DNA of 63,526 nt, the filler included, from Craspedostauros australis (lineage: Eukaryota): the NCBI GenBank assembly GCA_030167865.1. It is 13 parts of 13 records of this genome, joined end to end, with 100 filler letters (N's around TTAATTAATTAA, not from the genome) between each part and the next. Parts side by side here need not be neighbours in the genome. Positions count along the whole stretch, not along the records: positions 18,667 to 36,079 come from JALAGF010004005.1; 12 more parts are not named here. One strand, written 5' to 3'. The notes under the pieces are model-generated. The model was given only the letters and a program-made list of their open reading frames with translations. It was not told the origin of the DNA and searched no databases. The translations under genes and the position numbers were made by a program. Of this stretch, positions 4,468-38,024 are shown piece after piece (within the stretch, counting starts at the first letter, position 1; every line of letters starts with the position of its first letter).

Positions 4468-4468
4468 G

Positions 4469-6340: not shown

Positions 6341-6607
6341 ATCTTGCCCAGCGCAACTTTATCCAGCAAGTGCAATTGATGGTGAGTGCGATGGCAAATA
6401 TTGTACAGGATGACCATGACGATAAGGACACACAATCTGATGAGCATTGGCTCACGTGAATGATGTTGTCCGAATCGGATGATGAAAGTCAGCTTGTTCC
6501 AAAGTCCNNNNNNNNNNNNNNNNNNNNNNNNNNNNNNNNNNNNNNNNNNNNTTAATTAATTAANNNNNNNNNNNNNNNNNNNNNNNNNNNNNNNNNNNNN
6601 NNNNNNN

Positions 6608-11820: not shown

Positions 11821-12707
11821 GGGATAGTCAATGACTTATTCAGAGAGAAACTTTATACATGAGCTTCAGGAGGACAGGGGATGAGCATAAGATACTTGGT
11901 TGGACCAACGCTGGCCAGTATGCACACCAACATGAGGGACAAAACTGGTGCAGCAGGAAGGTAACTCAACAAGTTAATACATTTGGTAACAAATGGACCG
12001 ATAAACATGAAAGAAAGAGTAATCCAATTTAGAATCTGAATAGAAGGTCAATACGAGCTGGAGTCTGTTTGTAGAGTGTGCTAATTAGTTGTTGAAATTG
12101 GAGACTTTTAGATGTAATATTACACATAAAGGTGTTGATGGCTTTGTTTTGAAGTTCTGGGTGTTGGCAGGCCTCAGAATGCAGTGGACGCGCTCAAGAA
12201 GCAAGATTAACTCACGGCACCAGCATCGGGTGCTGATGGACATCTGGTTTGTGCTGGAGGTTTGGAGGAATTTGTTGGAATTCTGTTGTAATCCCCCATA
12301 CCCCAGCAGCAACAAAAGACCGTCACCAAGAAACCCCCACAACAACACGACAATGGGGAAACAAAACAAGACTCAGCAAGGACCCTCAAATGCCATGAAC
12401 GGCATCGCAACAACCATCAGCCCAATTCCAAATCCAAGCACATCGACGGAACCGCATTGGAAATCTTGGTGGATGGGCTACGAGGGCGCTGTCAGAGTGG
12501 TCCAATTGAGGGAGCGATAGCGGAAAGAGCGAAAGGCGCAAAAAGGTGGCAAATTTGCACGTTGGGTACAGGTTGCGCGTGGACGATGCAAGCCATTCCG
12601 ACAACCANNNNNNNNNNNNNNNNNNNNNNNNNNNNNNNNNNNNNNNNNNNNTTAATTAATTAANNNNNNNNNNNNNNNNNNNNNNNNNNNNNNNNNNNNN
12701 NNNNNNN

Positions 12708-16823: not shown

Positions 16824-16923
16824 NNNNNNNNNNNNNNNNNNNNNNNNNNNNNNNNNNNNNNNNNNNNTTAATTAATTAANNNNNNNNNNNNNNNNNNNNN
16901 NNNNNNNNNNNNNNNNNNNNNNN

Positions 16924-18566
16924 ATTGTTGGAGATTTTCAAGAAGATGAGTATTCTCCCTTCGAGGAAGAACATCACTCCAATACCAAAACCAACCCCGG
17001 TACCGAAACCACTCCTAATGCTATCGGAACCTCCAACGCACCTGATGCCGCTGGCCCCTCAAGCGGCGTCGCTCCATGGAAGGACACATCGCAATTCCTC
17101 GGTAGAGAGGCAGAGCTCGAACAGCTCAAAGCTCTGAAGGACAAGATCATCGGGGAGCACCAGAGCAATGCCACTCCCCCTGCACCGGAATCATCTGCTG
17201 ATGAGGACAAGGACAAGACCAAGGACAAGACCAAGGACAAGACCAAGGACAAGACCAAGGCAACAACGCCAGCACCCAAACCAAAGCCAAGCAAGAGACT
17301 CGATGTGCATCCAGCCGTTCTGGTCTGGGGTGTCAGCGGTACAGGAAAGTCTGCTCTCGTCGATCACTTCCTCGACACGTGCTGTATCTGCAACACTGGC
17401 GTCGACCAGAAGCAAACGAAGACCGAACAAGCGGATGCAGGCGATGCAGCACCATCTTGCTCCTGCTGCTACGTTCTTCGTGGAAAGTATGACGAGTACA
17501 CGGGTCAGAGTGACCCGTTCTCGGCCATCGTCCAAGCCCTCCAAGACTTCACGACCCAACTCAAGAACGGACCCAAGGAAGAACTCGATCGCATGCGTGA
17601 ATGCGTGCGGAAGGCCTTCCCCACTGGCGGACTTCGTCCAATGGTGAAAGTGGTGCCATCTCTCTCCATCCTGACGCCCAAGTCCACACGAGGCGACGCC
17701 TCCGTCATGAGCCAGTCCGTCAGCCGCCGCGATGACTACAGCCTGAGCATGCACGGCAGCCAGATGAACGGCGACGCACCGTCATCAGGGTCGGGTGGAG
17801 CAATCACCGAAAAGGCATGGAACCAGCTCAAGTACATCTTCGTACAGTTCATCAAGGCAATCTCGACGAAGGAACGACCCATCTACATGTTCCTCGACGA
17901 TCTGCAGTGGTCCGCTAACATCGGACTGGATCTGATCGCGCATATGGTGGGCGATCCAGCGATCAGACATTTCATGTTACTGGGCGCCATCCGCCAGGAC
18001 ACCAACCCACACACCGACGAACCACTGGATCTCACTCCCGACCATCCTCTGGCACGATGCCTCGTCGCGCCGCTGTCGCCAGATGCTGCCATCGATAGCG
18101 ACCCAAATGCAGCTGCTGGGCCTGACGATGCATCAGTCATGACCGCAACCACGGCAATGTCCCAAGTGGGCAAGCGTCGTTATCCAAGAAGTCTGCGCCA
18201 GATCACGATCACCAACCTCACGCTGGACGACATGACCGCATGGCTCTCGAGCATGCTGGACTGCAACGACATCGAAGATCTGTCCGAGAAGCTCTACGCC
18301 AAGACAGAGGGTAACGTCTACTTCACCTTGCAGGCTCTCGAAGAGCTCGAAAGGAAGGATATCCTCGCCTTCAACCTCCTTTCNCANCNATGGGAATGGA
18401 GCCTTTCCAACCCAGAGGATGACGATGATAGCAACGCCGGCAGCGCCCAGCTGCCCATCAGCGACAACATCCTCGGTATCATCGAGTCCAAGCTGCGAGA
18501 CCTTCCCATGCAGCTGCAACAGATCCTGTCAGTTGCTGCCTACATCCGATCGACGTTCGAGATCTC
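16924..18566 (+). CDS. Second haplotype or close paralog of the STAND ATPase (partial)
   Basis: Starts at the same base as 12708 and appears identical for about 630 nt. Scattered substitutions follow (SARGNA/STRGDA, AWGQ/AWNQ, ARRL/ARCL, IIGS/IIES). Confidence 0.85.
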
Positions 18567-18666
18567 NNNNNNNNNNNNNNNNNNNNNNNNNNNNNNNNNN
18601 NNNNNNNNNNTTAATTAATTAANNNNNNNNNNNNNNNNNNNNNNNNNNNNNNNNNNNNNNNNNNNN

Positions 18667-20685
18667 GCCTCGAGCGATGCATCGTGTTGGTTGTTGCTGT
18701 TGTCGAGCAGCATGTACTCCGATAGAATGCCGCGGACTTGGGTCTGCATGTTGCGGCGGGTTCGCTGGTGGTAGACGACTCCAGCTGCACCCAGTGTGCC
18801 AATCAGAGCAATCACGGAGACGAAGAAAGTGGTGTGGGAGATCGGCTTTTGCGATGCGGGGATGGGGTCAACGATCAGCACTCCGTCATCGTCGGCGTAG
18901 CCATACGCGTCTCCTCCCTTCGGGTTTCCTCCACCGTCTCCATCTACTTCATTGATGCATTGCTCTACATTCGTGCGGTAACGACAATAAATGCAAACAC
19001 GAGGGAGTGATTCGGCGGTGAATCGTGAGCAGATGTCCCCGAGGATCTCCTCCGCGATGAATCTTCCTTGGAACATCCTCTTGTTGACATACAACGATGG
19101 TATGGCAACGAGGCTCTTCCTTTCGGCAAGCTCCATCTCGGCTTGGAGAATTGTATTTTCGATGTTTGCATCAAGTCCACCAGAATGGGACATGCATTCG
19201 TCGATGGCTCTCCCGTCAACACCAGCGATTTCCATAGCGCCGGTGATGCAGTCATCATCCTTGAAGGATTCCCCGGTGCACGTTGTGGTGAATTCATTGA
19301 CATACTTCCACCATCGGAAGCCATTGTCAACGCTTCCATAGTTCCTCCAGATACAAAGCCGACGGAGAGTCTCAGCCATAATGCTGGCGCCCTGAATGAC
19401 CCCATTCTCATAGTAGTAGTATGCCTCCAGGGAGCAGTATCGACCATGGTTTGTGCACATGGTACTGCATTCGGGATCGCTGTCGGAGGCGCGGTCGCAT
19501 AAGAACTTGGTCCCACTAGTCACCGACATGTGCGGGGTAAAGGTTGCGGACTCACCCAACGCATTGACAAGGCTGCCGAGTAAAGGTTCGGGAGGCACAT
19601 TGCCCATGCCGCCAAGGGTTGGAATTGTCCAGAACTCAACGTCCACATGGTCATGAACGTCCGGTGCGGACCACGACATCTTGGCTCGGACGGGGAAATC
19701 CTCAGTGAGAAGGCGCTTCCACTGATCGGCGTCTTCCTTCAGCATCATGAAAGACGGGATCCCAACGTCCCCACCGGAACCATCATCCCCCATGTCTGGC
19801 TCGTGTGCTTCGCACCCGACATCATCTGAGAAGCAGCTGCTTCCTGAGGAGCACTGGCAGATGTTGTCGGCGATCAGCACGGCACTGGCACCTGAATACT
19901 GGGCATTCCGCACCTTCCTCACGAAGGAACAGCCACCCCGGTCAACCATGAGGATGAAAGAGGTTCTGGTAGGAAGTGATCCATGTCCATCATCGTCTGG
20001 GCTTGGCCAAATACGTGCGTCACGATTGATGCTGCGATCGCACATGGGATCATCAGTGTAGTACACGGGCTGCTCCATGGATCCGATGGTTGGGGTCCAG
20101 CCGAATTGGGCATCCGTGTGGTTGTATCCACCTGACATCCTCAAGTTTTCGGGATACTATGCAACGATTGGCGTGTCGACATGCATGTTGAAAATAGTAA
20201 TAAGACGAAGAGGATGAGGATGATATGGCGTTGTTGCATGATATAGTACGATGTGCTCATATGGATTAGGGTCGCACTGAGGATACGTACGCACAAGTAC
20301 TCCAGGTAGAGCCAGATGATGCCGCCCCTGCCCTGCTCTGGCGTAACCGCACATGGCATACGAGCTGCATAGTCGTACGGGTAGGGCAATAGGCACCCTA
20401 CCCATGGAGTGCAGAGCTGCGCATTCATCCATGCGGTGACATATGCAGACACGAGCTCCAGACACTGGAGATGCTATCAAGATGCGCGGCAAGGCATCGT
20501 CCCAGTACAAGTACAAGCACATCACATCCGTGCACTCTTCGAGAGTAGAGCACGATGTTCGATGGTGCACTCACCGTGGCTTGCAACCGGCTTTCTGCAT
20601 TCACGTTGAGGTTGACGTTGGTCGCGCAGTGCAGCGTGCTGACCGCAAGGCCGAACGCGAGCTTTCCAAATCCATTGAAGCGCAT
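18667..20685 (-). CDS. Vacuolar sorting receptor (VSR/BP-80-like, PA domain); exon 1 20685-20575, exon 2 20156-<18667
   Basis: Signal peptide MRFNGFGKLAFGLAVSTL. A phase-0 GTGAGT...ATAG intron (20574-20157) joins SRLQAT|YPENLR. PA motif VDRGGCSFVRKVRNAQ...VLIADN, then CTNHGRYCS, ETLRRLCIW, a TM helix and cytosolic VRGILSEYMLLD (YMPL-type sorting motif). Confidence 0.88.
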
Positions 20686-22575
20686 GTTGGTACTGCCTGC
20701 TTTGCTCTGCTCTGCTCTACTTTGCTCGAATCGGATCGACTCGGATCGAAGATGTGTGTCCTGTTGCTTGGGGGGTTGTGATCCTTCTCCTGCTCGTGGT
20801 GGATGTGTTGATGATGATGATGATGATGATGATGGAACTGATTGCGAATCTGTTCTTGGTTGTGGGTGTGGATGGAGGTTGCTGGCGACGCCGGACGGCA
20901 GCGCAATTGTTCTTTCGTGCTGTTTGTGTCGCCTGGTGTGCAGAACGACGAACGATGTCGTGGATGCGCCGGTTGCAAAGTTTTGTGCGTGATGAGTCGT
21001 GTTAAAATAGACTAATCTAGAGCACATCACAGAAACGTATCCAAAACACATCGCAGAAACGGAGCACAGCACAACAACAAGGTGGAATAGCCATAATCTT
21101 CGCTTAATCCAATCAACACATCAAGTTACGTACCACTCTGATCATACCCACGCTTCAATAATCCTGCTGGAGATGCGAGCGATCTCTTGGCATTGATTTC
21201 GACGAGCCATTCCGCGCATCTTCCATGCGATGATGCCTTTGATCAAGTCGTCGAGCCGGAGCACTGCTCAAGACACGCACACTGCGGTGAATTGGTTCTG
21301 AGGCGTGGAGCCCAACCACTTGATTGGATCAAATCAAGCCTTGTGCATGCCAATGGCAACGAGCGAAAGAAACTGCTTTATCAAACATGCACAGCATCAG
21401 TAGGAGCGAAGATGGTGGAGGAAAGATACCAAGTAAGCATTGCTTCGTTGTTGGCGCCTGCATGATCGCTGCATGGACATGCAGTATATGATATGTGCTT
21501 CATGAAATCCCCTCGCTCGCCCACTCGCTTGCTGGCCCTCTCTCTCTCTTCTTCTCACTCGGGTCGGTCACAAAAGCACAACAAGCCTGGATCCCGAGCC
21601 AATCGAATTCTCTGGTCCGGATGTTATTGTTGGACTTACCGTCGTGGGTGTCCGCCTCGTCGCAGTCGCTGTGGGAGTTGGCATCTGCAACAAGCGAGCG
21701 CACGATATTCCATCCGTGCTCCGATGGGCACTCCCATCCGAAGTGTCATGTGATGGATACGCTACCGTGACATTAGACGGGCCATCAGATCTGCCACCCG
21801 AAGTGCTGCTCAATTCCGAAGTGCAAAGCCTACATATGACACAACCATCAACAAGATAACCTTGTGGATCTCATGCTTGGACGCAGCAATGATAGCGCAA
21901 GTGGTGCAACTGCTCTGGGTGTCGCGTACATACGCTTCGGTCGAATCAAGCCTGATCAAAGCGCAATTGATGCCCCATCATCGGTGCTCTCTTGCAAGTA
22001 GCGGCGATGTCTTGATGGGAATTCGAGACGAAGCGCACAACTCTCGCTTCGTTCGTTGCCTCATCTGCGGCCCAATGGATGCATTGAAGATTGGGCAAAC
22101 GTCCGCTTGTCGCAAGATGCCTCTGCATGGTGAAATGGCGACGAAGGTACACATGGTGAATCCATTGAAGGCTCGATGGCGCTCACATTCCATGCTGTTC
22201 GCCCACTGGCATTCACGGCCATTCTCCAGTCAATCTCATCTCCCCATCGCAACCAACACCACACAACCGAACCTAATGATGAAATAGTGATTGTGTGACG
22301 CAATACGAATGCACCAACTGCGACACTGCACACGCAAATCAACCTTCGTGTTTCCGCTGAATTCAGGCGGAAGCGTCGAACTGAAGAATAACTCAGCATG
22401 TGGGGGCGTAGCATTTTATTGATTACCAGCCATCTCTTCCTGCCATGACGCCTGCTCTGACTCTTGTTTTAATGACGAATCGATCGCTTGTCTTGCGGCT
22501 TCTTTGATTCCGAAGCTAATTCATCTGCTTCATTCCATGATATGATTGCTTCTCAAGGGTTGCAGCGGTGGCACT

Positions 22576-24399
22576 TCATTCCTCTTTCTCTGTCGCGCCA
22601 TTGGTCTCGGTCGCAGAGGATGATTTGATGGAACGGACGAAATCCAACAGCGTGCCTCGGTCCATGTACGAATCCACCTGCGGACTACCCTCGTCTTCAT
22701 CCACAACCTTGTACAACTCCATCATGGACATGCCACTGTAATGGTCATCAATCCCATCGTTCTTCGTCCGCCCACTGCAGCGGGCCTGGACCTCCCGCAG
22801 CAGTAGAGGCTGTTGGAATAGCGTGGTGAAATCTGGATGAATGAATACTGTTTGTATGTTTTGAGCTGCCATTCTCATTGCAGCATCCTTCAACACCACA
22901 CAATTGTGTTCATCGGCGAATAGCAACGCATCTATTATGGTGTCCGCTGTGAGATGCTTACGGGCCAACTCTGCTTCAAGAACAAGCTTGAGCCGCCAGA
23001 AGCCAAACTCGTTGGACACGAGGATCAGCTGTTGCAGATCATCTTGTCCAGTGAGGGTGTGAGTTGGCTGGTCCGTGCCACTGTCATGAACGCTGTCGTC
23101 GAAAGATATCTCACCTGCGTAGATGCATTCGAGGACATGTTGCACATGTTTGGATTGAAGGTTGGGAAGCGGGATGAGTGTATGGGTGGGAGCAGCGACA
23201 GCATCAGCGCAGTCATCAGCGCGCTGATGTTGGATTCCGGAGTCGATCAATGACTGAATGGAAGGAACGGTGATCATGAGGACTGTGCTGTTTGCCTTGA
23301 TTGGTTGTTGGGCATCGCCTTGCCCACACAGGAAGGTGACATCCGCCAGGGCCTCGGTGCGAACAGCGTCGCGACGATCTTGGTCAATGCTGATAGTGGG
23401 CGTTGTGCGGACTGGAGGGTTGCCGTGCTTGGATGGTGCTGCGATGGTCCTCGTGGCGATATGCTTGTGAAACTGCAGTTGCGAGCGTAGGTGACTGAGA
23501 CGGCTGATGGTTGACTTTATCATGTTGACCTGATCTTGGACATTGATCATCTGGAAGGGTGTATTGCTGTTCTTGTTCTTGCGGTTGGCATCAGCCTTGG
23601 CTGAGATGAGGTGCTCCACGCATTCAGAATGGCCGAAATCGCATGCCACATGAAGGGGAGTGTTATCCTCGTTGTCCCTGCAGTTGACATCAGCCTTGGC
23701 TGATTCGATAAGGTATTTCACGCATTCAGAACGGCCGAAACGGCATGCCACATGAAGGGGAGTGTTATCCTTGTTGTCCCTGCAGTGGACATCAGCCTTG
23801 GCTGATTCGATGAGGTATTCCACACATTCAGAATGGCCGTTGCAACATGCCCAATGAAGGGGAGTCCAACCATTGTTGGTCTTGCAGTTGACATCAGCCT
23901 TGGCTGATTCGATGAGGTATTCCACACATTCAGAATGGCCGTTGCAACATGCCCAATGAAGGGGAGTCCAACCATTGTTGGTCTTGCAGTTGACATCAGC
24001 CTTGGCTGATTCGATGAGGTATTCCACACATTCAGAATGGCCGAATCGGCATGCCTCATGAAGGGGAGTCCGACCATTGTTGGTCTTGCAGTTGACATCA
24101 GCCTTGGCTGATTCGATGAGGTATTCTACACATTCAGAATGGCCGTTGCGGCATGCCCAATAAAGGGGAGTGTGACCATAGCCGTCCCTGCAGTGGACAT
24201 CAGCCTTGGCTGATTCGATGAGGTACTCCACGCATTCAGAATTGCCGTTGAAGCATGCCCAATGAAGGGGAGTCCAACCATCACGGGTTTTGACCTTGTT
24301 GATATCAACCCCATCATTCTGCTTCTTCCATTCTTTCAACACTGACACATCACCTGCCTTGGCAGCATCAAGGAGCTGTTCATTCGAAACACCCGACAT
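22576..24399 (-). CDS. Ankyrin-repeat (7 x 34 aa) + BTB/POZ protein, 607 aa, intronless
   Basis: Repeats of TPLHxACxxGHSECVEYLIESAKADV. BTB region ADVTFLCG...IKANSTVL...HVLECIYAG...LILVSNEFGFWRLKLVLE, followed by BACK-like DALLFADEHNCVVLKDAA. Confidence 0.92.
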   Translation of the reverse strand: MSGVSNEQLLDAAKAGDVSVLKEWKKQNDGVDINKVKTRDGWTPLHWACFNGNSECVEYLIESAKADVHCRDGYGHTPLYWACRNGHSECVEYLIESAKADVNCKTNNGRTPLHEACRFGHSECVEYLIESAKADVNCKTNNGWTPLHWACCNGHSECVEYLIESAKADVNCKTNNGWTPLHWACCNGHSECVEYLIESAKADVHCRDNKDNTPLHVACRFGRSECVKYLIESAKADVNCRDNEDNTPLHVACDFGHSECVEHLISAKADANRKNKNSNTPFQMINVQDQVNMIKSTISRLSHLRSQLQFHKHIATRTIAAPSKHGNPPVRTTPTISIDQDRRDAVRTEALADVTFLCGQGDAQQPIKANSTVLMITVPSIQSLIDSGIQHQRADDCADAVAAPTHTLIPLPNLQSKHVQHVLECIYAGEISFDDSVHDSGTDQPTHTLTGQDDLQQLILVSNEFGFWRLKLVLEAELARKHLTADTIIDALLFADEHNCVVLKDAAMRMAAQNIQTVFIHPDFTTLFQQPLLLREVQARCSGRTKNDGIDDHYSGMSMMELYKVVDEDEGSPQVDSYMDRGTLLDFVRSIKSSSATETNGATEKEE

Positions 24400-25289
24400 G
24401 TTGATACGAGTGCGATGGCCGATGGTTGGATGGGTGATTAGTTGTCGAGACTGGTTTTTATGGTGTGGTGTCTGTCGGTATGAGATGGCATGGCAAAGGC
24501 ATCGATGCTGTGTCCCAATTTCACCAGTACAGTGCGAGTATGTGCTGTGTGATGCACAGCAAGCTCATGTCTCTTGTTGATGGGTCCGAGCGTGGACTTC
24601 CATACTCGCAGTACGTACGACTACTATACGCAGTACTGCTGTCTCGTTTCCATGGTGGTCTCTTGCTTTCTCTCGTTGCCTCGGGCTTGCGTTGTCTTTC
24701 GCTCTCCTTTGCTGCTTTCTTTGTTGGTCTCCACCCCTTCATCTCCATCCCACGATCGTGTTCTCAGGTTTCGTTGTCCATGGCATGTTCACAGCGGAGG
24801 ACCACCAGCATGGAGTGCAGATCCTCGTCGCGTTCTCAGGTTTTGTTGTGCCAAGCACATCACCACGAGACAGAACAAGGCGAAGCGAGAAGTCTCCGCA
24901 AGATCACTTTGTGGATGGCGAGAACACTCCGAGGACGCAACCAGAACACAGGAGGAAAACAGGATCTTCGACTAGCCGGACTAATCCAAAGCTTGAGTTC
25001 CTCCTCCAACCTTTTTGTGCGGAACAGCCGCAATCTAAATGGACGAAACCAGAGATAGAGAGGAAGGGAGAGCACACCATCGCGTCTCATCGTAATTTGG
25101 TCGGCGACACATGAACATCAACGAGCCAAGCAAGATTAAGAGCGTATGAACGGGTCGGTGAGACTGCCAGAGCACTCTCGAGCTAAGTGGTCCACTCCAG
25201 AGTTTGTCCAACAAAACGTTGTTGCTACGAGCGTATTGCAACGAGTGCATGCGTACAACTAGAGCAGTGTGCATGTATTGCTTATCTCT

Positions 25290-25704
25290 TTACACAGTCA
25301 AAACATCCATAGCGGCAACGACATCCGCAACGGCCTGGCCCATCTCCTTGCATCCGATGAGCTTGCATCCATCATCTTCCTGCTTGATGTCCGGTGTTCT
25401 CAATCCTTGATCCAAGACCTGCTCCACCGCATCCTCTAGCATCTGCGCTTCGGCAGGTCGGTCCAGATCGTACTTGAGCATCATGGCGGCCGACAGGATC
25501 ATGGCCAGCGGGTTGGCCTTATCCTCGCCTGCGATATCTGGCGCCGATCCGTGACACGGCTCAAAGACGCCGGGCCCCGACTCGCCGATGGAGGCCGACG
25601 GCAGCATGCCGAGCGATCCCACGAGCATGCTGGCCTCGTCGCTGAGGATGTCGCCGAAAATGTTGCCGCACACGATGGTGTCGAACTGCTTGGGCCAGCG
25701 GATG

Positions 25705-25736
<32 letters not shown>

Positions 25737-26800
25737 ACTCAGCTCGACGTCGGTGAACTCGTCCGTGATGACCTTCGTGACGACCTCGCGCCACAGCTGG
25801 CTGACGTCGAGGACGTTGGCCTTGTCGACGCTGCAGAGCTTGCCCGTGCGCTTGCTGGCGACGTCACCGGCGACGCGGGCGATGCGGTCGATCTCGTTTT
25901 CGGCGTAGATCATGTTGTTGTAACCGACGCGTTGGCCTGGAATATGTCGAAGCGATGTTTGCCGTGGCGGTTGCATTTGCATTGAAGCCAACAAATGTAG
26001 AGTAGAGCAAGGTAATCACATGCAGCAATGAGTGTTAGTCTTGATGCGCTGGAGTGTGACGGGTCCCTTCCACAATCATCCTCGTGATCACAATCATTCA
26101 CACCACTATGATCACTGCTGTCATCACTGAACAATACTGTACCAGCACATCACAACAAAACAAGAGAAATCCATTCTCCAGAATCCATCCTCAGCGAATC
26201 CTCGTGTGCAACTTGTCACTCACCATCCACAACATCGATACCCTTGGGCGTGCCGAAGTAAACATCGCCCGTCAATTCACGCACGACCATAACATCGACA
26301 CCCTCCACGACCTCGCGCTTCAAGGTCGAAGCATCGAGCAGCTGCGGCAAGACCTTGGCGGGACGCAGATTGGCGAAGAGCCCCATCTCCTTGCGCATCT
26401 TGAGCAGTCCCGACTCGGGACGCAATTCGCGCGGGTTGTTGTCCCACTTGTATCCTCCGATGCAGGCCAGCAGGACGGAATCCGAGGCCAGGCACTGCTC
26501 CAGCGATTCCTGTGGGAAGGGGTCGTTGGCGGCGTCGATGGCGCAGCCGCCGATGAGGGCCTCCTTGAGTTCGATCTCGAAGCCGCATTTGGTGCAGAGG
26601 GCCTCGAGCGTGTGCTTCGTGGCCTCGGTGATCTCGGGGCCGATGCCGTCGCCAGGCAGGAGGGTCACGGAGTAGGTGTCCTTCTTGGCGACCGCGTGCA
26701 GGGCGGAAGGGGCGTGGGCATTGTGCGTCACGACGAAGGCCTGGCTGCTGGCGATGGCCGATGCGAGGAGGAACGTGATGGCGGAACCGAATCGGGGCAT
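25290..26800 (-). CDS. leuB: 3-isopropylmalate dehydrogenase, plastid-targeted; exon 1 26800-26224, exon 2 25936-25290
   Basis: [63 protein letters not shown] and [12 protein letters not shown]. The GTGAGT...CCAG intron (26223-25937) restores the frame (VDG|QRVG). Signal peptide ends SQA-F. Confidence 0.97.
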
Positions 26801-27245
26801 TGTACTACGAGTTTGTATGTTATAATAGTAGAGTACGTGTATAGCAGGTGCAGATCGTAGATAGTATGTGCTGTGGATTGACTTTGTGATGCAGGGATCG
26901 CAGCAGACGGTTTCCATCTCCGGCCACCGTCCTTCGCGTCAACGGAACAAGATCATGGTCGGCACGCGATTGCGATTGCGATGTGATTTGATGTGAGGCG
27001 CCGCGAAAAACGCACTTGTTGTGTGGATTGGTTTTGTACTGTCTGTCAGGCGTCGGTTCCACGCGTATCTTTTGACACCTGTTGGCATTTGTTTCCGCTT
27101 TCCTTTTGTTCTGTTTGTTTGTGACGTTTTCTTCTGTTGCTTTCCTTCCATTTTCATGAGCTCACAACTGCCGCAACCATCGCAACTCCCAAAGTATCCA
27201 TAGTAGCTGCTTCATCTGCATCCATCTCCGATCAACTGCAGCACC
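26801..27245. promoter_or_regulatory. Probable bidirectional promoter region between leuB and ctpA
   Basis: 445 nt separate the two divergent ATGs. Inferred from gene geometry only. Confidence 0.55.
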
Positions 27246-28898
27246 ATGACCTTCAGAATACCCAAGTTGGGCTTTGTGGGAGCCGTTGTTCTCCTCGCAT
27301 CTCATTGCCGATATTCACACGGGGTTGCTGCATTCCAACCGAGCCTGCTTCCGACGCACGTCGTCCGACGATTGGCATCACCAGTAAACGATGACGCTTC
27401 TTCTTCTTCCACTTTGCCATCATTGCGGATGCGATCTGCCTCGCAGGATGACAACGGCACTGCAGATGATGGGAGATCAAAGCATCCATCAGCATCGGAA
27501 TGGATGGACAAGGCCCGCGAAGGCACCAACTCCGTCGCAAAGACGATCGCGCAGTACTCGATAATGTGCCTCATCGCAGGCAGCCTCATCTTTGCACCGC
27601 TTCCTCACATTGGCGCAGACAGTGCCGACCAATTCATTGCAAACGCAGCCACCACGACGGAGGTTGCGAATCAGCAGCAGCCAGCGACTCCGTTGGAACA
27701 GACGTGGGGCCTCGTCGACAAGTACTACATCGACAAATCTTTCAACGGTCAGGACTGGGATAAGGTGCTCGCCAGATACCAGAAGCGTCTTTCTTCGTCC
27801 ACCGACGACAGCACCATGATGAAGTACACGACGGAGATGGTCCAATCGCTGGGCGACCGCTACACGCGCGTCCTGACCACGGAACAATACACCAGCATCC
27901 AAAAGTACGATCTCATCGGCGTTGGCGTCACGTTGATGCCCAACGCGCAGAAGCAGATCATCGTCGGCGCGCCACCCATCGGCGGTTCCGCCTCGGCCAA
28001 GGCCAACCTGCAGGTCGGCGATCGCATCCTCGCCGTCAACGGCTTGCAGACCGAAGGACGCACGGCCTTCGACATCATCGATCAAATCTCGGAACAGCCC
28101 AACGCGCGCACCATCACCTTCACGGTCCAAAAGGTGGACGACGATGTCGCCGCGGATCTCACCCTCGAACGTGCCAATTTCGCCGAAATCAAGAATCCCG
28201 TCCAATTCAAGATGGCGGAGCGCCGCGCCGACGGCACCAACGTGGGATACATCCGCATGACGGAATTCAATTCCCAGATCAAGGCCAAGCTCGAGGATGC
28301 CCTGCGCGATTTGCAACGCGACGGCGCCAACGCCATCGTGCTGGATCTGCGCGGCAACACGGGCGGCGCCTTCCAATCGGCTGTCGAGATTTCCAACTTC
28401 TTTTTGCCGTCCAACACAATCGCGACGTACGTCGTCGATGGCAACAACGTCGAACTGCCGTTCCGCACGACTACGAGCGGCGATCTGCACGTATCGGACG
28501 ACGTGCCCATCGTGATTTGGCTCGACGGTATGTCGGCCTCCGCGTCGGAAGTCTTCGCCGGATCGATGCACGACAATTGCCGCGCCGTCACGATGGGCAG
28601 CAAGTCGTTTGGGAAAGGCTTGATCCAGGCCGTCTACGGATTGCGCAACGGCGCGGGGTTGGTGCTCACGGTGGCCAAGTACATCACGCCGAACGGCACG
28701 GAGATTCAGGGCATCGGCCTCACGCCCGATATCGCAGTGGGGCTCGTGCCGTCCGTCATTCCGGGGTTGGGCTCCGATACGAGCAAGGTCAATTTCGGTG
28801 ATATCTCCAAGCGCACCGGGATATGCAGTTTGCCGCAGGAACGTGTCAAAGTCGGCAGTGTCGAGAGCACGTTGATGACGTCGGAATCGGAGTCGTGA
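27246..28898 (+). CDS. ctpA: C-terminal processing peptidase (S41A, PDZ domain), plastid/thylakoid-lumen targeted, 550 aa
   Basis: SLGDRYTR, IGVGV (PDZ), GYIRMTEFN, LDLRGNTGG, catalytic SASASE and SFGKGLIQ. Signal peptide ends VAA-F; a later hydrophobic stretch ends A-N-A. Confidence 0.93.
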   Translation: MTFRIPKLGFVGAVVLLASHCRYSHGVAAFQPSLLPTHVVRRLASPVNDDASSSSTLPSLRMRSASQDDNGTADDGRSKHPSASEWMDKAREGTNSVAKTIAQYSIMCLIAGSLIFAPLPHIGADSADQFIANAATTTEVANQQQPATPLEQTWGLVDKYYIDKSFNGQDWDKVLARYQKRLSSSTDDSTMMKYTTEMVQSLGDRYTRVLTTEQYTSIQKYDLIGVGVTLMPNAQKQIIVGAPPIGGSASAKANLQVGDRILAVNGLQTEGRTAFDIIDQISEQPNARTITFTVQKVDDDVAADLTLERANFAEIKNPVQFKMAERRADGTNVGYIRMTEFNSQIKAKLEDALRDLQRDGANAIVLDLRGNTGGAFQSAVEISNFFLPSNTIATYVVDGNNVELPFRTTTSGDLHVSDDVPIVIWLDGMSASASEVFAGSMHDNCRAVTMGSKSFGKGLIQAVYGLRNGAGLVLTVAKYITPNGTEIQGIGLTPDIAVGLVPSVIPGLGSDTSKVNFGDISKRTGICSLPQERVKVGSVESTLMTSESES

Positions 28899-29837
28899 GA
28901 TTATCGGAAAGTTGGCCTATTCTCTCTCTCTGTCTCCAGAGGTTATCTGAAGTTGGTGACTGTTCAAACGATAGTAGAGTACTCCATGCTCCAGGGTTTG
29001 TGCTACACCGGTATCAATGCAAAATGCTTCTAATGAACAACAAAGTAGCTTTGTCTCAACATGGCATTATCACAGAAGGGTGGTTGAAGTGCGGCAAAAA
29101 ACCATGCTCGTACTCTACTCTATCCCTCTGAATTCGGTGACGCGAATAATAGTAAAGGTGCTGGTTTTGCGATTGTTGCTGAAAATGAATTCACTCCACA
29201 AGTATCAATAAGTACGAGCTGCCTCCAATGTACGCATGTATACTACGTTTGCAAGCTGACCGTATTGCTTAGACGATTGATGGAAGCGAACGATGGGACA
29301 GCATGCAAAGCATGGCAGTCACAGGGTACTTGCTGGTGTTTGCCAGCTCTGTCCTTGAATGGAGGTCTTGCAACAGCTGCTGCATCACACATCAAGCATG
29401 GCATCATTTTGTCATGCCATCAACTACGCCCAAGCTCCTTTGGTGCCTGAATTGAGTCTAACTATCGCGATTGGCCGCTTGGGCAGCAGTTTTCTCGATG
29501 TTGAAACAGGTCTCTCCACACAGTTTGCTACCAACCCAGTAGTCTCTGGTTACATTGATTCATGTGTTGTTGTTGTTGTACTAGTAGTTGTTACCTGCAC
29601 TGTTTGCTTGTGTCATTGTCTGGGGATCATGAGTTCATTTTCATGCCATCCGCCATCTGGACTTCAGTGTGCAATTTATCATCACCTTCACTATGCTTCA
29701 TCATGTCATTCTGGCAGTTGTTTTGCCAGAATCAAACCACTTCATTTCACAATTTATACTGCAGTTCACCGTGTTGTGGCCTCCTTCATGCATTTTGCAT
29801 GACTGATTGTCATGCCTCTTGGCGATCTGCTCCTTTC

Positions 29838-29960
29838 TCTCACATGGTTGCTTGTTTCTCATACATGGCTGATAGGTCCCATCACATGGTCGTTGGATCA
29901 CATCACATGGTCTTTGGATCTCATCACATGGTCTTTGGTCAATACTTACCCATGGTTGGG
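29838..29960. repeat. 21-nt minisatellite (CATCACATGGTCkTTGGATCw): 3 good copies at 29880-29940 plus degenerate flanking copies
   Basis: The CATGG core recurs with roughly 21-nt periodicity. Confidence 0.8.
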
Positions 29961-30129
29961 TCAATCGTATATTGGTCCCATATCTCAATTTCCATGTTCT
30001 CCAAGTCATCCATTATTTCTACATAGAGTCAGGATCAATCTCACTTTTGCCAAAGACGGATCCAAGCTTCTCATTTTGGCTGACCAAACCTGGTCTCACG
30101 TTTTCCAAAATATTTTGTCTGTCTTGACA

Positions 30130-30169
30130 TCCTTCATGGTGCTCCCAACTTCATTGATGAGATGGATGT
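30130..30169. repeat. Dispersed repeat matching 36040-36079
   Basis: TCCTTCaTGGTGCTCCCAACTTCATTgaTGAGaTGGATGT versus TCCTTCgTGGTGCTCCCAACTTCATTtgTGAGgTGGATGT. The second copy is cut by a spacer. Confidence 0.75.
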
Positions 30170-31338
30170 TCTTGTCAATCGCCTTGGTTGAGCATCGATT
30201 CTCTGCAAGTCACAAGCCAAGATGGTGGCCCTCATGTCTCTGGATAGAACGCACATGGTATTGTGTCTTGGTGGTCCATGCAGCAGGAACAGCAGAGGCG
30301 ACACGGTATCACTCTGCCTGTTGATTGCTGAACAAGTCAACTCATCCCGATGCACGATGTGGTGTTGGTTTGATGTTGGGGACTCTTGTTGCCTGTTCAG
30401 ATGGTGATGCTTGCAATGCGGTGGGATGGCAACCAGCCAAGTCCAAATGAAACGGGTCGCAACCAACAGAGGCAACGAACAAAGGCAACCAACGAAGGTA
30501 GCACATCGGTGGCTTCATCTTTGTTCGAGGCATTGGTTCACACCTCAAGTTGGTGCTTGCGATGGCAGGCGGACGAGGGGCAGCAGTCTTGCAGATGTCA
30601 TGATGACGCAAGCAAGCGTGGCCCATGGTGTACATGGTGGTGGTGATGACAGCTCCCTCTGTCTCTGTATCCCTGCCTCCGAAGACTTCCGCGTTGTTTG
30701 CTTCGAATTGATGTGGTGTTGATTGTGGCTGGAGTCAAGGTGTTGGAGACAGGCTCGAGTCGCAAGACTGTTCAGGGCGACGGAAACACCATCAACGATC
30801 TCTCGCATTCGTTGTGCTTCGACAGATGTCCACACAGTCATTGGTCTTCTTCGGTGATCTGACTCATAGTCGTATCAGTCGAAGAATCTCGTTTTCGACA
30901 ATGCCACACAACAGAACCCTGTTGTTGTCAGAACCCTCTGTTGTCTTCCTTCTTGTTGTTGTTCACGTAGTCGTAGTAGTACATACTCGTGATGGATGGG
31001 AACAGGAGGATCCAAGGCCGCACGAACCAGAGAGGGGTGCGATCAAGAGAAGGAGGCAAACACGACGATGCTTGTGCCCAACGAGAGAAAGAGAGGACAC
31101 GTGCGAACAAGACAACAACACACACCACTCAACCCCATACTCGAGCACATCAACAACAGACATCGCATTGCCACTCATATTCATCACACAGTGTGGTATT
31201 CAGACCAATACATGCCATTGAACACACACAATCGATATCTCTGCCATAGATAGTTCAGACTACACACTTCCTTGACAGCCAATTCGACGTCGATCATCCA
31301 ACGTCAATCGTCCAGCAACCATTGACCATCCTCTCAAA

Positions 31339-32520
31339 ATGCCGAATGTTACGAACGAACAACTCCTTGAGGCTGCCGAGGAAGGTGACTTGTTGGTGTT
31401 GAAGGAATGGAAGAAGCAGAGCACGATGCAGAATGAAGGAGTTGATGTCAACAAGGTTACAGACAGGAGTGGTCAGACTCCCCTTCATTATGCATGCATG
31501 TATGACCACCTGGAGTGTGTGAAGTACCTCATCGAATCATGTGGGGCGAACATCAACTGCAAAGACGACGATGGTGACACTCCCCTTCATGTGGCATGCT
31601 TGTGTGGCTACCTGGGGTGTGTGAAGTACCTCATCGAATCAGGTGGGGCGGACATCAGCTGCAAAGACAATGATGGTGACACTCCCCTCCATAAGGCATG
31701 CATCAACGGCCACCTGGAGTGTATGGAGTCCCTCCTCGAATCATGTGAGGCGGACATCAACTGCAAAGCCAACGATGGTGCCACTCCCCTTCACTACGCA
31801 TGCCACAACGGCCGCCTGGAGTGTGTGAAGTACCTCATCGAATCATGTGGGGCGAACATCAACTGCGAAGACGACGATGGTGACACTCCCCTTCATGTGG
31901 CATGCTTGTGTGGCTACCTGGGGTGTGTGAAGTACCTCATCGAATCATGCGGGGCAAACATCAACTGCCAAAACAACCACGGTTCCACACCCCTTCATTG
32001 GGCATGCGACAACGGCCACCTGGAGTGTATGGAGTCCCTCATTAGAGGACTTTCGCCTTCAGCTCACCCACAACTGCAACAACTGCAGCAGCACTTACAA
32101 CAAAACGAACAAGCAAATGAACAACCACAAGCACAGTTGAGACAGCAGTTGAAGCGAAAGAGCCAAGAGAATGAACACAAACACAGCAGCCACAAGAGGA
32201 CCAACGTCAGCATTGGAGAAGACCGACTCAAATCCTTCTAAACTGGGAACAGGACAGACACCATCTTCTTGTGTGGACAGGGCAACTAACAGCAACCAAT
32301 CAAGGCAAACGCCGAAGTTCTCATGATCACCGTCCCATCCATTGAGACACTGATCGACAAAGGAATCCAACATCACCACGCGAATGATGGCACCGAAGAC
32401 TACGTGGCCCCATCCAAACAACCATCGCTCTTCCAAACCTTCAACCAAACCATGTCCGATACATCCTCCAATGAATCTACACAGGCAAGATATCCTTCAA
32501 CAACAACACTCATGACGACA
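31339..32520 (+). pseudogene. Paralog of the ankyrin-BTB gene: 6 intact ANK repeats, BTB disrupted
   Basis: The N-terminus NEQLLEAAEEGDLLVLKEWKKQ matches that of 22576-24399. After TAA at 32239 the frame continues TDTIFLCGQGN*QQPIKANAEVLMITVPSIETLIDKGIQH, then frameshifts into LPNLQPNHVRYILQ*IYTGKISF. Confidence 0.88.
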
Positions 32521-32676
32521 CCGATGATGATGACGCAAACCAGCGTCTCTTCATGCAACGCAACTCTGTTCGATGATGGCGATGGCGATGGCGATGACGA
32601 CCCCTCCAACGGCACCACATCCCTTCATTGGTACCACCGACGCAAACGCAAACGCAAACACAAACAATCAGACAAG

Positions 32677-35015: not shown

Positions 35016-36179
35016 TGCATCATGACACGATGGGAGTAAATGAGATGTGGGGGCCGCTCCGTATTTGTATCATACTCATAGAGGTGTGGTAGACTCACGT
35101 CCCTGTATGTAATACACCTACGAATAGACTGTAATGCTCTATAATCTGTATGGTTGGAACAGTACCGCATGTACTATATCTGCTTGTGCAATAGAACACT
35201 GTGATGAAGTCACCAGATGTGTCAAGAGATTGAAGGGCTGGATACTGCTCCCGTGCTGCCTCTGCCTTGTCTACGACTACTCGTGTGCGCCCTCTACGAT
35301 ACATACCCACACAAGGATGTTGCCGATGTCATTCACCAGCAGATTGGACGTCCGTGGTTCCGCCCACACTCCGCCATGAGCATCATTGTTGGTTCATTGC
35401 ACAGACAAAGAACGCAAGGCAGCAGCATGTTCACAAGCTGTGCGGTCGTCGCAGTGCGGTCGTCACCGTGCCGCCGGATTCGCACACAGAGCACTCTCCA
35501 CTCCAAGTCACACACTGCCAAGCAGATTGAAAGCTACAGTGCCAATGCCAGCCAATCCAAGTTTCTGGAAGAGACGATCTACGAAGAGCACGTGGCGAAC
35601 AAAGCAGAGGGAAATGACGAGAAGCCGCAAGGAGCATGGTTGCTACGCGATTCCATCGACCGTCCCGTATCGCGCTATTGTCCTCATCTCCAGGAGTTGC
35701 GCTCCCGCCATTGTGCCAAAACTGCAGTCGAGACCCTCACCAAGTCCCAGAAGGAGCGATCACTCGCCGTTGGAGCAACAAATGCCAGGGTCACCATCCA
35801 TTCCAATCTTCGAAGCGACCAGTGCCAGCGTGGCGGAAAGACAAGAACCGACGAGGTAGTGGAGTCCAAGCATCCAGAGAGCTTGACGAGCAACAGAAGC
35901 AACCAACGAACCAATGAGCAACCCCATGCAGAGTGCGAGTTCCGTATTGCGGATCATGGTTGACACAGAGTTTCCATATGGCAGATGAAGCACATGGTCA
36001 GCGATCCATGGCCCATGGATACCGTACACCCACATGTCCTCCTTCGTGGTGCTCCCAACTTCATTTGTGAGGTGGATGTNNNNNNNNNNNNNNNNNNNNN
36101 NNNNNNNNNNNNNNNNNNNNNNNTTAATTAATTAANNNNNNNNNNNNNNNNNNNNNNNNNNNNNNNNNNNNNNNNNNNN

Positions 36180-37813: not shown

Positions 37814-38024
37814 CATACTCCTTTCTCAAATCGTCAACTTGTTTGCCCATGATGATGCTGATGGCCTCCTGTAGTTGCCCCTCATGATCATCATTGCAGT
37901 CTCTCTCTGTCATGTCCATTTCATNNNNNNNNNNNNNNNNNNNNNNNNNNNNNNNNNNNNNNNNNNNNTTAATTAATTAANNNNNNNNNNNNNNNNNNNN
38001 NNNNNNNNNNNNNNNNNNNNNNNN

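Follow-up and report, generated by a model that had tools for sequence, protein, structure and literature searches.

A capped ankyrin array joined to a SPOP-type BTB-BACK module in the diatom Craspedostauros australis, with unit differences concentrated on the binding face

The DNA analysed here (the window, 63,526 nucleotides from Craspedostauros australis) is a chain of contigs, one of which carries two related ankyrin genes. Gene 1 is a single-exon reading frame on the minus strand. Its first in-frame Met is at 24399, a start site shared by the homologs, and its product P0001 is colinear end to end with the 607-aa homolog P0003 at 45% identity. Gene 2 is a decayed paralog located 7 kb from gene 1. 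The features are listed below.

18567..18666, no strand: contig-joining linker (44 N + TTAATTAATTAA + 44 N), left end of the contig with both genes
22576..24399, minus strand: gene 1 (P0001), single-exon coding sequence from translation, 607 aa plus stop
24304..24399, minus strand: N-terminal capping helix pair, aa 1-32 (model helices 6-15 and 18-27, pLDDT 86-96)
23593..24303, minus strand: seven ankyrin units, aa 33-269 (Tandem Repeats Finder, unit table, seven Pfam Ank matches, model)
24303-24202, 24201-24100, 24099-23998 and 23997-23896, minus strand: units 1-4
23895-23794, 23793-23692 and 23691-23593, minus strand: units 5-7, unit 7 one codon short
23788..24043, minus strand: stretch of perfect 102-nt periodicity holding units 4 and 5 (exact 154-nt run at offset 102, from 23788)
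23500..23592, minus strand: C-terminal capping pseudo-unit, aa 270-300, running into a long helix (helix 287-317 in the model)
23395..23499, minus strand: linker, aa 301-335, mostly disordered (pLDDT <50 at aa 310-341)
22966..23394, minus strand: BTB with SPOP-type N-terminal helix, aa 336-478 (Pfam BTB, Foldseek)
22765..22965, minus strand: 3-box/BACK helices, aa 479-545 (Pfam BACK, alignment to SPOP BACK)
22621..22731, minus strand: SAP-like helix-loop-helix tail, aa 557-593 (alignment to the SAP of relatives; helices 559-568 and 581-603)
31339..32241, plus strand: gene 2, paralogous ankyrin reading frame, still open, 300 aa, six 34-aa units (Tandem Repeats Finder, reading frame, six Pfam Ank matches)
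32242..32498, plus strand: decayed remnant of the BTB N-half of gene 2 (tblastn alignment to P0002, three-frame translation)
36080..36179, no strand: contig-joining linker, right end of the contig with both genes

Gene 1 encodes a capped ankyrin array followed by a linker, a BTB domain, 3-box/BACK helices and a SAP-like tail. Pfam finds Ank, BTB and BACK within the one 607-aa frame, which bears out the fusion of an ankyrin array to BTB-BACK stated in the original prediction. The full-length AlphaFold model has a mean pLDDT of 81.1 and shows seven helix pairs in the ankyrin blocks (92-98). The C-terminal part modelled with AlphaFold reaches a mean pLDDT of 85.6 and a pTM of 0.79.

Tandem Repeats Finder reports the array at 23573-24281 with a period of 102, 7.0 copies, 88% matches and a score of 935, and the repeat search also lists a family with 102-nt spacing. 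Six units are 34 aa (102 nt) long and the last one 33 aa. Pfam gives Ank 270.5 bits in seven stretches and Ank_2 429.8 bits. The seven 102-bp repeats had been described as sharing a near-invariant framework, and SECVEYLIESAKADV is indeed exact in five of the seven units; the exceptions are an E to K change in unit 6 and a Y to H change plus the missing codon in unit 7. Units 4 and 5 are the same at all 102 nt, in line with the claim of two units identical in DNA (23811-24014), a range covered by the periodicity at 23788-24043. The variable hairpins agree with the claim, as do the residue following TPLH (W, W, E, W, W, V and V in units 1-7) and the pair following AC (FN, RN, RF, CN, CN, RF and DF). 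The array is also DARPin-like and consensus-like, as had been proposed, the best PDB sequence match being the designed DARPin construct 6mol_A (E 7.8e-143). The N-cap sequence resembles the designed N-cap printed in PMC4308713. The C-cap has just 14-24% identity to the internal units and aligns with the last unit of P0003.

The 34-aa period is common to the ANK-BTB family; the additional residue is located between helix 2 and the hairpin. The number of units within the family ranges from 1 to 8, and P0003 has the same length as P0001 with the same eight unit positions. A search with the ankyrin part (aa 1-290) over 8000 scored candidates gave 2157 matches at E ≤ 1e-20. The best 120 of these are generic ankyrin proteins with at most 46% identity, and none of these 120 shares the unit framework.

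The C-terminal module was evaluated by sequence and by predicted structure. In full P0001, BTB reaches 23.6 bits in Pfam against a cut-off of 20.5, and BACK, at 20.8 bits, lies just below its cut-off of 20.9; with the C-terminal part alone both are barely over the same cut-offs (25.1 and 22.2 bits), and BACK_BPM_SPOP is under its own (17.2 bits, cut-off 27.4). Foldseek with the predicted C-terminal fold returns human SPOP at all of ranks 1-11 (target TM 0.82-0.83; best match 4j8z_B, E 8.6e-9, target TM 0.82, rmsd 3.2 A over 202 columns), followed by KEAP1, KBTBD2/4, KLHL3 and KLHL11, all of them Cullin-3 adaptors. Human SPOP is also the best match of a PDB profile search (E 3.4e-34, alignment through residue 356) whose query alignment already included MATH-BTB relatives, and single-sequence phmmer of the C-terminal part against the PDB gives 0 matches at E ≤ 1.

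Using aa 290-607, phmmer finds 162 representatives at E ≤ 1e-3 and 10 at E ≤ 1e-30. Among 38 of the 162 inspected with Pfam, 6 have ANK plus BTB, 21 a MATH match and 10 a SAP match. Moreover, hhalign joins the non-ANK members (alignment A2) to the MATH-BTB-SAP relatives (A3) with a probability of 100% (E 4.7e-45, 290 columns including the tail). In a tree of BTB, BACK and tail, 9 of 9 ANK-bearing rows fall into one group of 11 rows (support 100/99), which adjoins rows without a named N-domain and one MATH row. In the alignment of ANK and MATH relatives (A1), the columns without any variation (L, K, E, C and L) lie in or beside the 3-box/BACK, where the model places helices (488-541) directly after the BTB. 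The tail can be matched in every column to the Pfam-SAP segments of MATH-BTB relatives, and the model gives it a helix-loop-helix form whose loop is longer; for the last 74 aa of P0001, Pfam gives no family at E ≤ 10, SAP (PF02037) included.

Taken together, sequence relatives, PDB profile, hhalign and Foldseek establish the predicted SPOP-type fold and the kinship of this module, and the anticipated BTB-BACK of Cullin-3-adaptor type can be narrowed to the SPOP class. Pfam finds no MATH in P0001, the N-terminal 300 aa being ankyrin, and hence P0001 is a relative of the MATH-BTB class and not a MATH-BTB protein. Since the C-terminal module is SPOP-class with MATH-BTB-BACK(-SAP) relatives, the ankyrin array occupies the place of MATH in SPOP.

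Identity to P0003 differs between the parts, with 81/137 in the BTB, 20/33 in the SAP-like tail, 100/235 in the ankyrin units and 11/35 in the linker; the 3-box/BACK (29/67, 43%) is no higher than the ankyrin units (43%). The closest database proteins share 58-65% identity over the C-terminal part, and the named relatives come from Craspedostauros australis and one MMETSP diatom ('Staur...'). In the protein atlas the top match, which serves only as a lead, is a diatom cluster of the type BTB/SAP/BACK_BPM_SPOP (0.90). Two scans of metagenome contigs, with the C-terminal part and with P0005 as queries, yielded no related locus.

In SPOP, Met233-Glu234-Glu235 is described as a Cullin-3 contact (PMC3597819). 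P0001 has Ile-Gln-His at the aligned positions, so that a hydrophobic residue is retained but Glu is not conserved, in an alignment that is unsure there because the loop between alpha3 and beta4 of the gene 1 BTB holds a long insert with pLDDT <50 (aa 393-403). The hydrophobic contact residue, read from the alignment blocks, is Ile or Met in most family members. For a pair of C-terminal parts (their aa 40-265), complex prediction has a score of 0.00, gives no verdict and weighs neither way.

Gene 2 on the same contig allows a comparison within the locus. Tandem Repeats Finder reports it at 31470-32042 with a period of 102 and 5.6 copies. Its BTB remnant contains 3 in-frame stops and a frameshift, and the BTB C-half, BACK and tail are absent. 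The framework dS is 0.16 among gene 1 units and 0.085 among gene 2 units versus 0.68 between the genes. Gene 1 units are 62-100% identical to each other versus 31-55% to P0003 units, and positional orthology between units of gene 1 and P0003 was looked for and found for the C-cap only. Judged by these distances, the units were amplified or homogenised within each gene after the two paralogs had split. An origin by giant virus or transfer was considered and dropped, since the neighbours are ordinary host genes and the GC content (0.51-0.52) is similar to the rest of the contig, if somewhat lower than the 0.54-0.59 of the genes between the two paralogs.

The distribution of changes between units was analysed at binding-face codons picked beforehand, namely six DARPin positions, six ANK-N5C positions and their union of 7 of the 34 codons. 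Changes were counted as the minimum per codon column in units 2-7 of gene 1, a count that is robust to recombination because it needs no tree. The 7 union codons hold 17.5 of the 25.5 non-synonymous changes, which random 7-column sets reach in 1 of 100000 cases; the DARPin positions hold 14.5/25.5 (random sets 17/100000) and the ANK-N5C positions 15.5/25.5 (3/100000). The amino-acid differences concentrate where the binding face of an ankyrin array is made, in the hairpin and the inner helix, and the expected variation at positions randomised in designed ankyrin libraries is confirmed with these pre-chosen sets. For the outer helix (positions 22-30, limits from the model) 2 non-synonymous and 4 synonymous changes are counted. 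Many variable codons differ at two or three bases, e.g. AAC/TTC, ACC/GAC and TGG/AAC.

Per site, the non-synonymous rate in units 2-7 is 0.95-1.02 at binding-face codons versus 0.13-0.17 elsewhere, and synonymous changes run at 0.35 over the whole unit and at 0.27 when the binding-face set is left out. The binding-face non-synonymous rate is thereby ~2.8 to 3.6 times the unit synonymous rate (Poisson P 0.0014 to 1.6e-5). Within the binding-face codons alone there are 2.5 synonymous changes over 2.7 sites, which is as high as the non-synonymous rate, and pairwise pN/pS is 0.9 to 1.4. The excess of non-synonymous change at the surface that had been expected consequently holds against the unit-wide synonymous rate but is not demonstrated when these few codons are compared with their own synonymous changes. 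The data therefore suggest diversifying selection on the binding face and fall short of proof. The ankyrin units 1-5 of gene 2 show 20 of 38 changes in the 7 binding-face codons (random sets 1/100000); in units 2-5 alone the enrichment is weaker (random sets 307 to 4799 of 100000).

Ankyrin arrays are known from cullin receptors such as ASB (ANK-SOCS box, Cul5), FEM1 (Cul2) and poxvirus ANK-PRANC (Cul1), and BTB is combined with ankyrin in NPR1, ABTB1/2 and BTBD11, NPR1 having the order BTB then ANK. These proteins resemble gene 1 in using an ankyrin array as the recognition part of a cullin-RING ligase or in joining ankyrin and BTB in one chain. However, they differ in the cullin box (SOCS, F-box-like), the domain order or the BTB class, and in sequence none is related to the C-terminal module. 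FEM1C and NPR1 are among the structure and sequence matches, with NPR1 only 43rd by fold in Foldseek. SPOP and the plant BPM MATH-BTB proteins are closer. They share a BTB with N-terminal helix followed by 3-box/BACK and a substrate binder N-terminal of the BTB. Fold and profile searches give their best matches in this class, and the closest sequence relatives that lack ANK are MATH-BTB-BACK proteins. In contrast, gene 1 has a capped seven-unit ankyrin array for MATH, a SAP-like tail after BACK, a long alpha3-beta4 loop insert and no conserved contact Glu, and its binding to Cullin-3 is only putative.

Natural and designed arrays offer further comparisons. Like DARPins and ANK-N5C, gene 1 has an N-cap, near-identical internal units and a C-cap, and it varies at positions 2, 3, 5, 10, 13, 14 and 33 of the designed module (in part after PMC4308713). 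It differs in being natural, in its units of 34 instead of 33 residues and in Cys for Ala at several framework positions. Fungal NLRs (HET-E/NWD) carry internally highly conserved ankyrin, TPR and WD repeats, and for the ankyrin repeats selected sites on the concave face are reported (Dyrka et al. 2014, PMC4986451). The within-gene similarity of the gene 1 repeats, by unit identities and framework dS, recalls them as suggested originally: the units are far more alike than those of homologs, and the variable sites are the hairpin and the concave inner helix. Nevertheless, by the measure of high internal conservation used there (at least 85% unit identity over at least 100 aa, PMC4986451) only units 3-5 (102 aa) reach 85%, with 86-100% identity over the first 29 positions, compared to 62-100% for units 2-7 overall. 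Pfam finds neither NACHT nor NB-ARC in P0001, hence the product is not an NLR.

Adaptors of ubiquitin ligases in which the substrate-binding domain is under positive selection and the cullin-binding domain is conserved have been reported (PMC4334554, PMC3030570), among them fast-evolving MATH-BTB and F-box families of nematodes and grasses (Thomas 2006 as cited in PMC4334554 and PMC3030570). Gene 1 shares with these, as far as they are described in the cited sources, a conserved cullin-side module together with a substrate-binding domain showing excess amino-acid change, and the decayed paralog nearby is as expected under birth-and-death evolution. Unlike them, its variable part is a tandem array that changes by intragenic unit amplification or homogenisation, and the ANK-BTB family seen so far is small with its 10 representatives at E ≤ 1e-30.

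Based on this analysis we lean, with somewhat better than even confidence, towards gene 1 as a substrate adaptor of the SPOP/BPM class in which an ankyrin array stands for MATH and selection reshapes the groove, permitting a quick change of targets. The BTB would dimerise and, with the 3-box, dock on Cullin-3, and the ankyrin groove would grip the protein destined for ubiquitination. Selection may reshape the groove unit by unit such that the family could switch targets fast, in agreement with the varying number of units among its members and with the decay of gene 2. Pathogen, mating-related and ordinary cellular proteins are all candidate targets. The repeat shuffling and the link to immunity or pathogen-derived targets put forward in the original prediction are likewise putative.

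Alternatively, with the same architecture, ankyrin units may simply have been duplicated in tandem in recent times while constraint was relaxed, with one fixed cellular partner and neither diversifying selection nor target turnover. Relaxed constraint does explain part of the pattern, because the binding-face positions are the most variable ones across all natural ankyrin repeats, positions 2, 3, 5, 10 and 13 having the highest entropy generally (PMC4308713). The equal synonymous and non-synonymous rates at binding-face codons and their pairwise pN/pS agree with it, and the length and eight unit positions shared with P0003 suggest a conserved array size. Yet the unit number across the family ranges from 1 to 8, the pre-chosen codons exceed the unit synonymous rate by the factor given above, many codons differ at two or three bases and gene 2 independently repeats the pattern. 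We therefore consider this explanation unlikely, albeit a serious one.

It appears less probable still that the protein is an oligomeric BTB scaffold or a chromatin-associated regulator acting without Cullin-3, whose array and SAP-like tail tether partners to DNA or chromatin, a mode known from BTB proteins that function independently of a ligase. Such a role would be consistent with the non-conserved Glu of the contact triplet, the alignment of the tail with SAP domains of relatives and the BACK_BPM_SPOP score under cut-off. It is opposed by the Foldseek ranking, which lists SPOP and then further Cullin-3 adaptors, by the Ile or Met kept at the hydrophobic contact in most members and by the post-BTB helices, which hold invariant columns across ANK and MATH relatives. 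A different objection concerns the data themselves. The window contains 12 linkers of the above composition, some neighbouring contigs are duplicated, and a perfect periodicity of 256 nt is beyond counting by reads shorter than this stretch. The identical units and the count of seven might thus be an artefact or undercount of a short-read draft, the true copies differing in number or sequence, and how many copies of the identical unit exist is uncertain because the assembly is a draft of linked contigs. However, the reading frame stays open, the length (607 aa) and unit positions of P0001 are exactly those of P0003 and the five non-identical units carry the entire statistical signal, which leaves an artefact with a low probability.

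To our knowledge, no innate-immune receptors of the NLR kind have been described in diatoms, and we know of little on target choice by diatom ubiquitin ligases. Gene 1 represents a SPOP-type adaptor with MATH swapped for an ankyrin array that evolves in the concerted, surface-variable way seen in fungal non-self receptors. If the inferred function is true, the family would make rapidly evolving protein recognition accessible to study in diatoms, be it of pathogen or of mating targets, and would be a natural example of the DARPin design principle. If false, it is one more lineage-specific BTB adaptor. A much bolder version, which we regard as very unlikely, would have raphid diatoms possess a small, fast-turning family of Cullin-3 receptors in which amplification of units within the gene, gene conversion and diversifying selection rebuild the ankyrin groove, seizing changing foreign (virus, oomycete or bacterial) or mating-type proteins for the proteasome. 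In a photosynthetic protist, such a family would parallel the fungal NLR repeats while being coupled to a ligase. Among the titles and abstract openings of the literature on diatoms, ankyrin and BTB no such family is described, and the word 'ankyrin' does not occur in the main text of the genome paper on Seminavis robusta. That paper reports BTB/POZ families as reproduction-biased and among the genes with high piN/piS. Four observations go beyond the first description of this DNA, namely the kinship with SPOP and MATH-BTB proteins, the SAP-like tail, the family's 34-aa period and the decayed paralog at 31339-32498.

The gene at 24399..22576 (-), gene 1, consists of a single unbroken ORF of 607 aa (P0001). 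Position 24399 is its first in-frame Met and coincides with the homolog starts. Tandem Repeats Finder reports a 102-nt unit at 23573-24281 (7.0 copies, 88% matches, score 935) and Pfam recognises seven Ank units. They correspond to aa 33-269, whereby six units comprise 34 residues and unit 7, in which one codon is absent, 33. Units 4 and 5 are identical in 102/102 bases. Perfect 102-nt periodicity spans 23788-24043, a stretch of 256 nt over which the copy number is not trustworthy in a draft assembly. All variable residue patterns listed in the original prediction are found in the units. Taken together, the seven-unit, near-identical ankyrin array joined to a BTB domain is confirmed, including the pair of units identical in DNA.

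The full-length structure of P0001 was predicted using AlphaFold (mean pLDDT 81.1). The array consists of an N-terminal capping helix pair followed by seven helix pairs (pLDDT 92-98). A capping pseudo-unit after the array continues into a long helix (287-317), and the linker (aa 310-341) is disordered with pLDDT <50. The C-terminal part comprises a BTB sheet with helices, post-BTB helices and a terminal helix-loop-helix. Both caps are similar to the designed ankyrin caps printed in PMC4308713, and among PDB sequences aa 1-300 match the designed DARPin construct 6mol_A best (E 7.8e-143). Hence DARPin-like is a fair label, except that the unit has 34 residues instead of 33 in the designed unit. 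The 34-residue period is common to the homologs, whose units begin at the same 34-residue steps.

Only two family loci are found within the window, both on the contig 18667-36079. The second, gene 2, is a decayed paralog:

31339-32241 (+), array ORF with six units
32242-32498 (+), BTB remnant disrupted by a frameshift and three in-frame stops

The C-half of its BTB, the BACK and the tail are all gone.

The original prediction placed the variation among units at the positions randomised in designed ankyrin proteins, with a non-synonymous excess at surface sites. The binding-face positions were set before counting. The DARPin-randomised positions, which we take to be 2, 3, 5, 13, 14 and 33, correspond to 5, 7, 8, 10, 18 and 19 in the register of the gene-1 units (D1 V2 N3 C4 ...). 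According to the available text of PMC4308713, whose printed caps also fixed the register, the ANK-N5C positions 2, 3, 5, 10, 13 and 33 (here 5, 7, 8, 10, 15 and 18) are those of highest entropy in natural repeats plus the neighbouring 33. Minimum changes per codon column were determined using a spanning tree that connects the distinct codons, an approach that needs no phylogeny and is thus unaffected by recombination among units. The main count omits the more diverged unit 1, the C-cap and the codon absent from unit 7. The selection test is based on six distinct units in each gene.

Non-synonymous changes at binding-face codons of gene 1, units 2-7, and random column sets with a count as high
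6 DARPin codons: 14.5/25.5 changes; 17/100000 sets
6 ANK-N5C codons: 15.5/25.5 changes; 3/100000 sets
Union of 7 codons: 17.5/25.5 changes; 1/100000 sets

The predicted concentration is borne out, and adding unit 1 leaves the clustering unchanged (2 to 19 of 100000 random sets). In gene 2, 20/38 changes of units 1-5 fall within the 7 codons (1/100000 random sets; the last unit, whose tail continues into the linker, is omitted), while units 2-5 taken alone show weaker clustering (307 to 4799 of 100000). The variable codons map to the hairpin (5-10), the inner helix (15, 18) and just past it (19), whereas the outer helix (22-30) carries 2 non-synonymous versus 4 synonymous changes. The variable positions represent the ankyrin concave face, described as the ligand-binding side in the available part of PMC4986451.

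Non-synonymous rates in units 2-7 reach 0.95-1.02 per site inside the sets versus 0.13-0.17 elsewhere, with a synonymous rate of 0.35 over the whole unit and 0.27 outside the sets. The resulting 2.8- to 3.6-fold excess over the synonymous rate of the unit (Poisson P 0.0014 to 1.6e-5), combined with many two- and three-base codon differences, suggests positive selection at the binding-face codons. Relaxed constraint would be the alternative, as no position of an ankyrin repeat is under less constraint than these. It agrees with the binding-face codons themselves, where 2.5 changes on just 2.7 synonymous sites give a local ratio of ~1, and with a pairwise Nei-Gojobori pN/pS of 0.9 (all units) or 1.4 (units 2-7); the excess over the synonymous rate of the unit as a whole speaks against it. 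The claimed surplus at surface sites therefore holds against the synonymous rate of the unit and is not seen against local synonymous changes.

Framework synonymous divergence amounts to 0.16 among gene-1 units and 0.085 among gene-2 units versus 0.68 between the genes (N-cap pS 0.31). Gene-1 units share 62-100% identity with one another, 45-69% with those of gene 2 and 31-55% with those of P0003, a colinear 607-aa homolog. Total length and eight unit positions of P0003 equal those of P0001; a unit-by-unit correspondence between gene 1 and P0003 was not found, the C-cap excepted. The lower divergence within genes and this missing correspondence indicate that each gene amplified or homogenised its own units once gene 1 and gene 2 had split, whereby fresh duplication and gene conversion both fit the one array sequence. 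Mean unit identity within homologs is well below gene 1 (0.17-0.52, for units caught by the anchor pattern), and the unit number across the family ranges from 1 to 8. The single unit belongs to the transcript-derived relative P0002, compared to six in the related gene 2, and could reflect either a true difference in repeat number or a transcript assembly in which the array collapsed.

The predicted BTB and BACK domains are weakly supported by Pfam. BTB scores 23.6 bits on the whole protein and 25.1 on the C-terminal part (cut-off 20.5), BACK 20.8 and 22.2 (cut-off 20.9), and BACK_BPM_SPOP stays under its cut-off (17.2 versus 27.4 bits). Of 4565 candidates in a word-indexed search with aa 290-607, only 3 proteins were retrieved, two of them from Craspedostauros australis; exhaustive phmmer gave 162 representatives at E<=1e-3, of which 20 also passed E<=1e-10 and 10 passed E<=1e-30. 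Among the 38/162 scanned with Pfam, ANK and BTB co-occur in 6, MATH is matched in 21 (E<=1e-3, some under the curated cut-off), BACK_BPM_SPOP in many and a C-terminal SAP domain in 10. The protein atlas lists a diatom BTB/SAP cluster as first match, which serves as a lead.

Members without ankyrin match (A2, 9 rows) were aligned as a profile to MATH-BTB-BACK-SAP relatives (A3, 10 rows) with probability 100% and E 4.7e-45 over 290 columns, tail included. As a single sequence, the C-terminal part matched nothing in the PDB at E<=1; the profile of A1 (25 rows, MATH-BTB relatives among them) found human SPOP as best match (E 3.4e-34, profile 34-320 to SPOP 76-356). The AlphaFold model of aa 290-607 (mean pLDDT 85.6, pTM 0.79) retrieved SPOP at Foldseek ranks 1-11, led by 4j8z_B (E 8.6e-9, target TM 0.82, rmsd 3.2 A, 202 columns, 14% identity), followed by KEAP1, KBTBD2/4, KLHL3 and KLHL11, with NPR1 at rank 43.

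A maximum-likelihood tree of 25 rows was built from the BTB-BACK-tail region and midpoint-rooted merely for display. The 9/9 ANK-bearing rows fall within one 11-row group (support 100/99), together with a fragment and one row without ANK match. This group adjoins two rows without named N-domain and one MATH row. Within the tree gene 1 clusters with P0002 and another relative, P0005 (100/99); the BTB remnant of gene 2 is 75-83% identical to P0002 from Craspedostauros australis. Profile alignments, fold matches and tree place the C-terminal module in the SPOP/BPM class, with the ankyrin array at the position of the MATH substrate-binding domain. P0001 as a whole is related to SPOP/BPM adaptors but no member, since MATH is absent. 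MATH-BTB being more widely spread, we infer a swap from MATH to ANK, a direction read from distribution and not from a rooted tree. The closest relatives lacking ANK (P0014-P0064) make up a family characterised by MATH, BTB, BACK_BPM_SPOP and a SAP domain at the C-terminus.

The tail of P0001 (aa 557-593) aligns column for column with Pfam-SAP segments of relatives, and the model shows it as a helix-loop-helix whose loop is longer. Pfam SAP gives no match in it even at E<=10; we thus call it SAP-like. To our knowledge a SAP tail has not been described on SPOP-type adaptors.

SPOP and BTB-Kelch adaptors form BTB dimers, bind Cullin-3 via the alpha3-beta4 loop and 3-box and carry an N-terminal substrate domain (PMC3597819, available text). 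By analogy, P0001 would act as a Cullin-3 adaptor: its BTB would dimerise, alpha3-beta4 loop and 3-box would dock on Cullin-3 and the N-terminal array would present the substrate. In the A1-SPOP alignment, where the loop insert is long and of low confidence, SPOP Met233-Glu234-Glu235 aligns with Ile-Gln-His. Alignment blocks show a hydrophobic residue (Ile or Met) at the Met233 column in most members; the Glu of the contact triplet is absent from P0001.

Identity of P0001 and P0003 by region
BTB: 81/137
SAP-like tail: 20/33
Ankyrin units: 100/235
3-box/BACK: 29/67
Linker: 11/35

Judged by these regional identities, BTB and tail are better conserved than the recognition array, 3-box/BACK is not.

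Other ankyrin-array cullin receptors, which count among the closest known kinds, are ASB, FEM1 and poxvirus ANK-PRANC. No publication on an ANK-BTB family in diatoms emerged from the literature searches. Further close kinds are designed ankyrin binders and the families of MATH-BTB and F-box adaptors that evolve fast; the available parts of PMC4334554 and PMC3030570 propose an immune role for these adaptors. The parallel drawn to fungal NLRs points to their ankyrin repeats with high internal conservation (PMC4986451, in the part available) as another close kind; gene 1 is no NLR, as the NOD domain is absent. In the Seminavis robusta genome paper, supplements aside, BTB/POZ families are described as reproduction-biased and as belonging to the genes with high piN/piS, so that a role in mating is as plausible as one in immunity.

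The window contains 12 identical joints, each 44 N + TTAATTAATTAA + 44 N:

Joints 1-6: 4549-4648, 6508-6607, 12608-12707, 16824-16923, 18567-18666, 36080-36179
Joints 7-12: 37925-38024, 46143-46242, 49753-49852, 53361-53460, 57212-57311, 62316-62415

It represents concatenated draft contigs, hence gene order across a joint carries no meaning. Adjacent contigs have stretches of 97-100% identity in common directly past joints (12608-12907 and 16824-17123; 46143-46442 and 49753-50052; 48680-48979 and 52288-52587; inverted, 6608-7247 versus 12703-13342 and 16919-17558). A repeated element, haplotigs or contig redundancy is the probable cause. At 4468-4548, a perfect (GTT)27 microsatellite abuts a joint and probably caused the contig break. 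Three further ORFs on the gene-1 contig have no evident connection to the ankyrin-BTB gene:

18669-20156 (-), vacuolar-sorting-receptor-like ORF (PA + VSR_TRX), truncated by contig end
27243-28895 (+), S41 peptidase with PDZ domain
32864-34090 (+), 409-aa Ser-rich ORF, no Pfam family

An isopropylmalate/isocitrate dehydrogenase is encoded in two ORFs at 25293-26015 and 26219-26938 (-), covering profile positions 2-145 and 148-348, and looks like a gene with one short intron.
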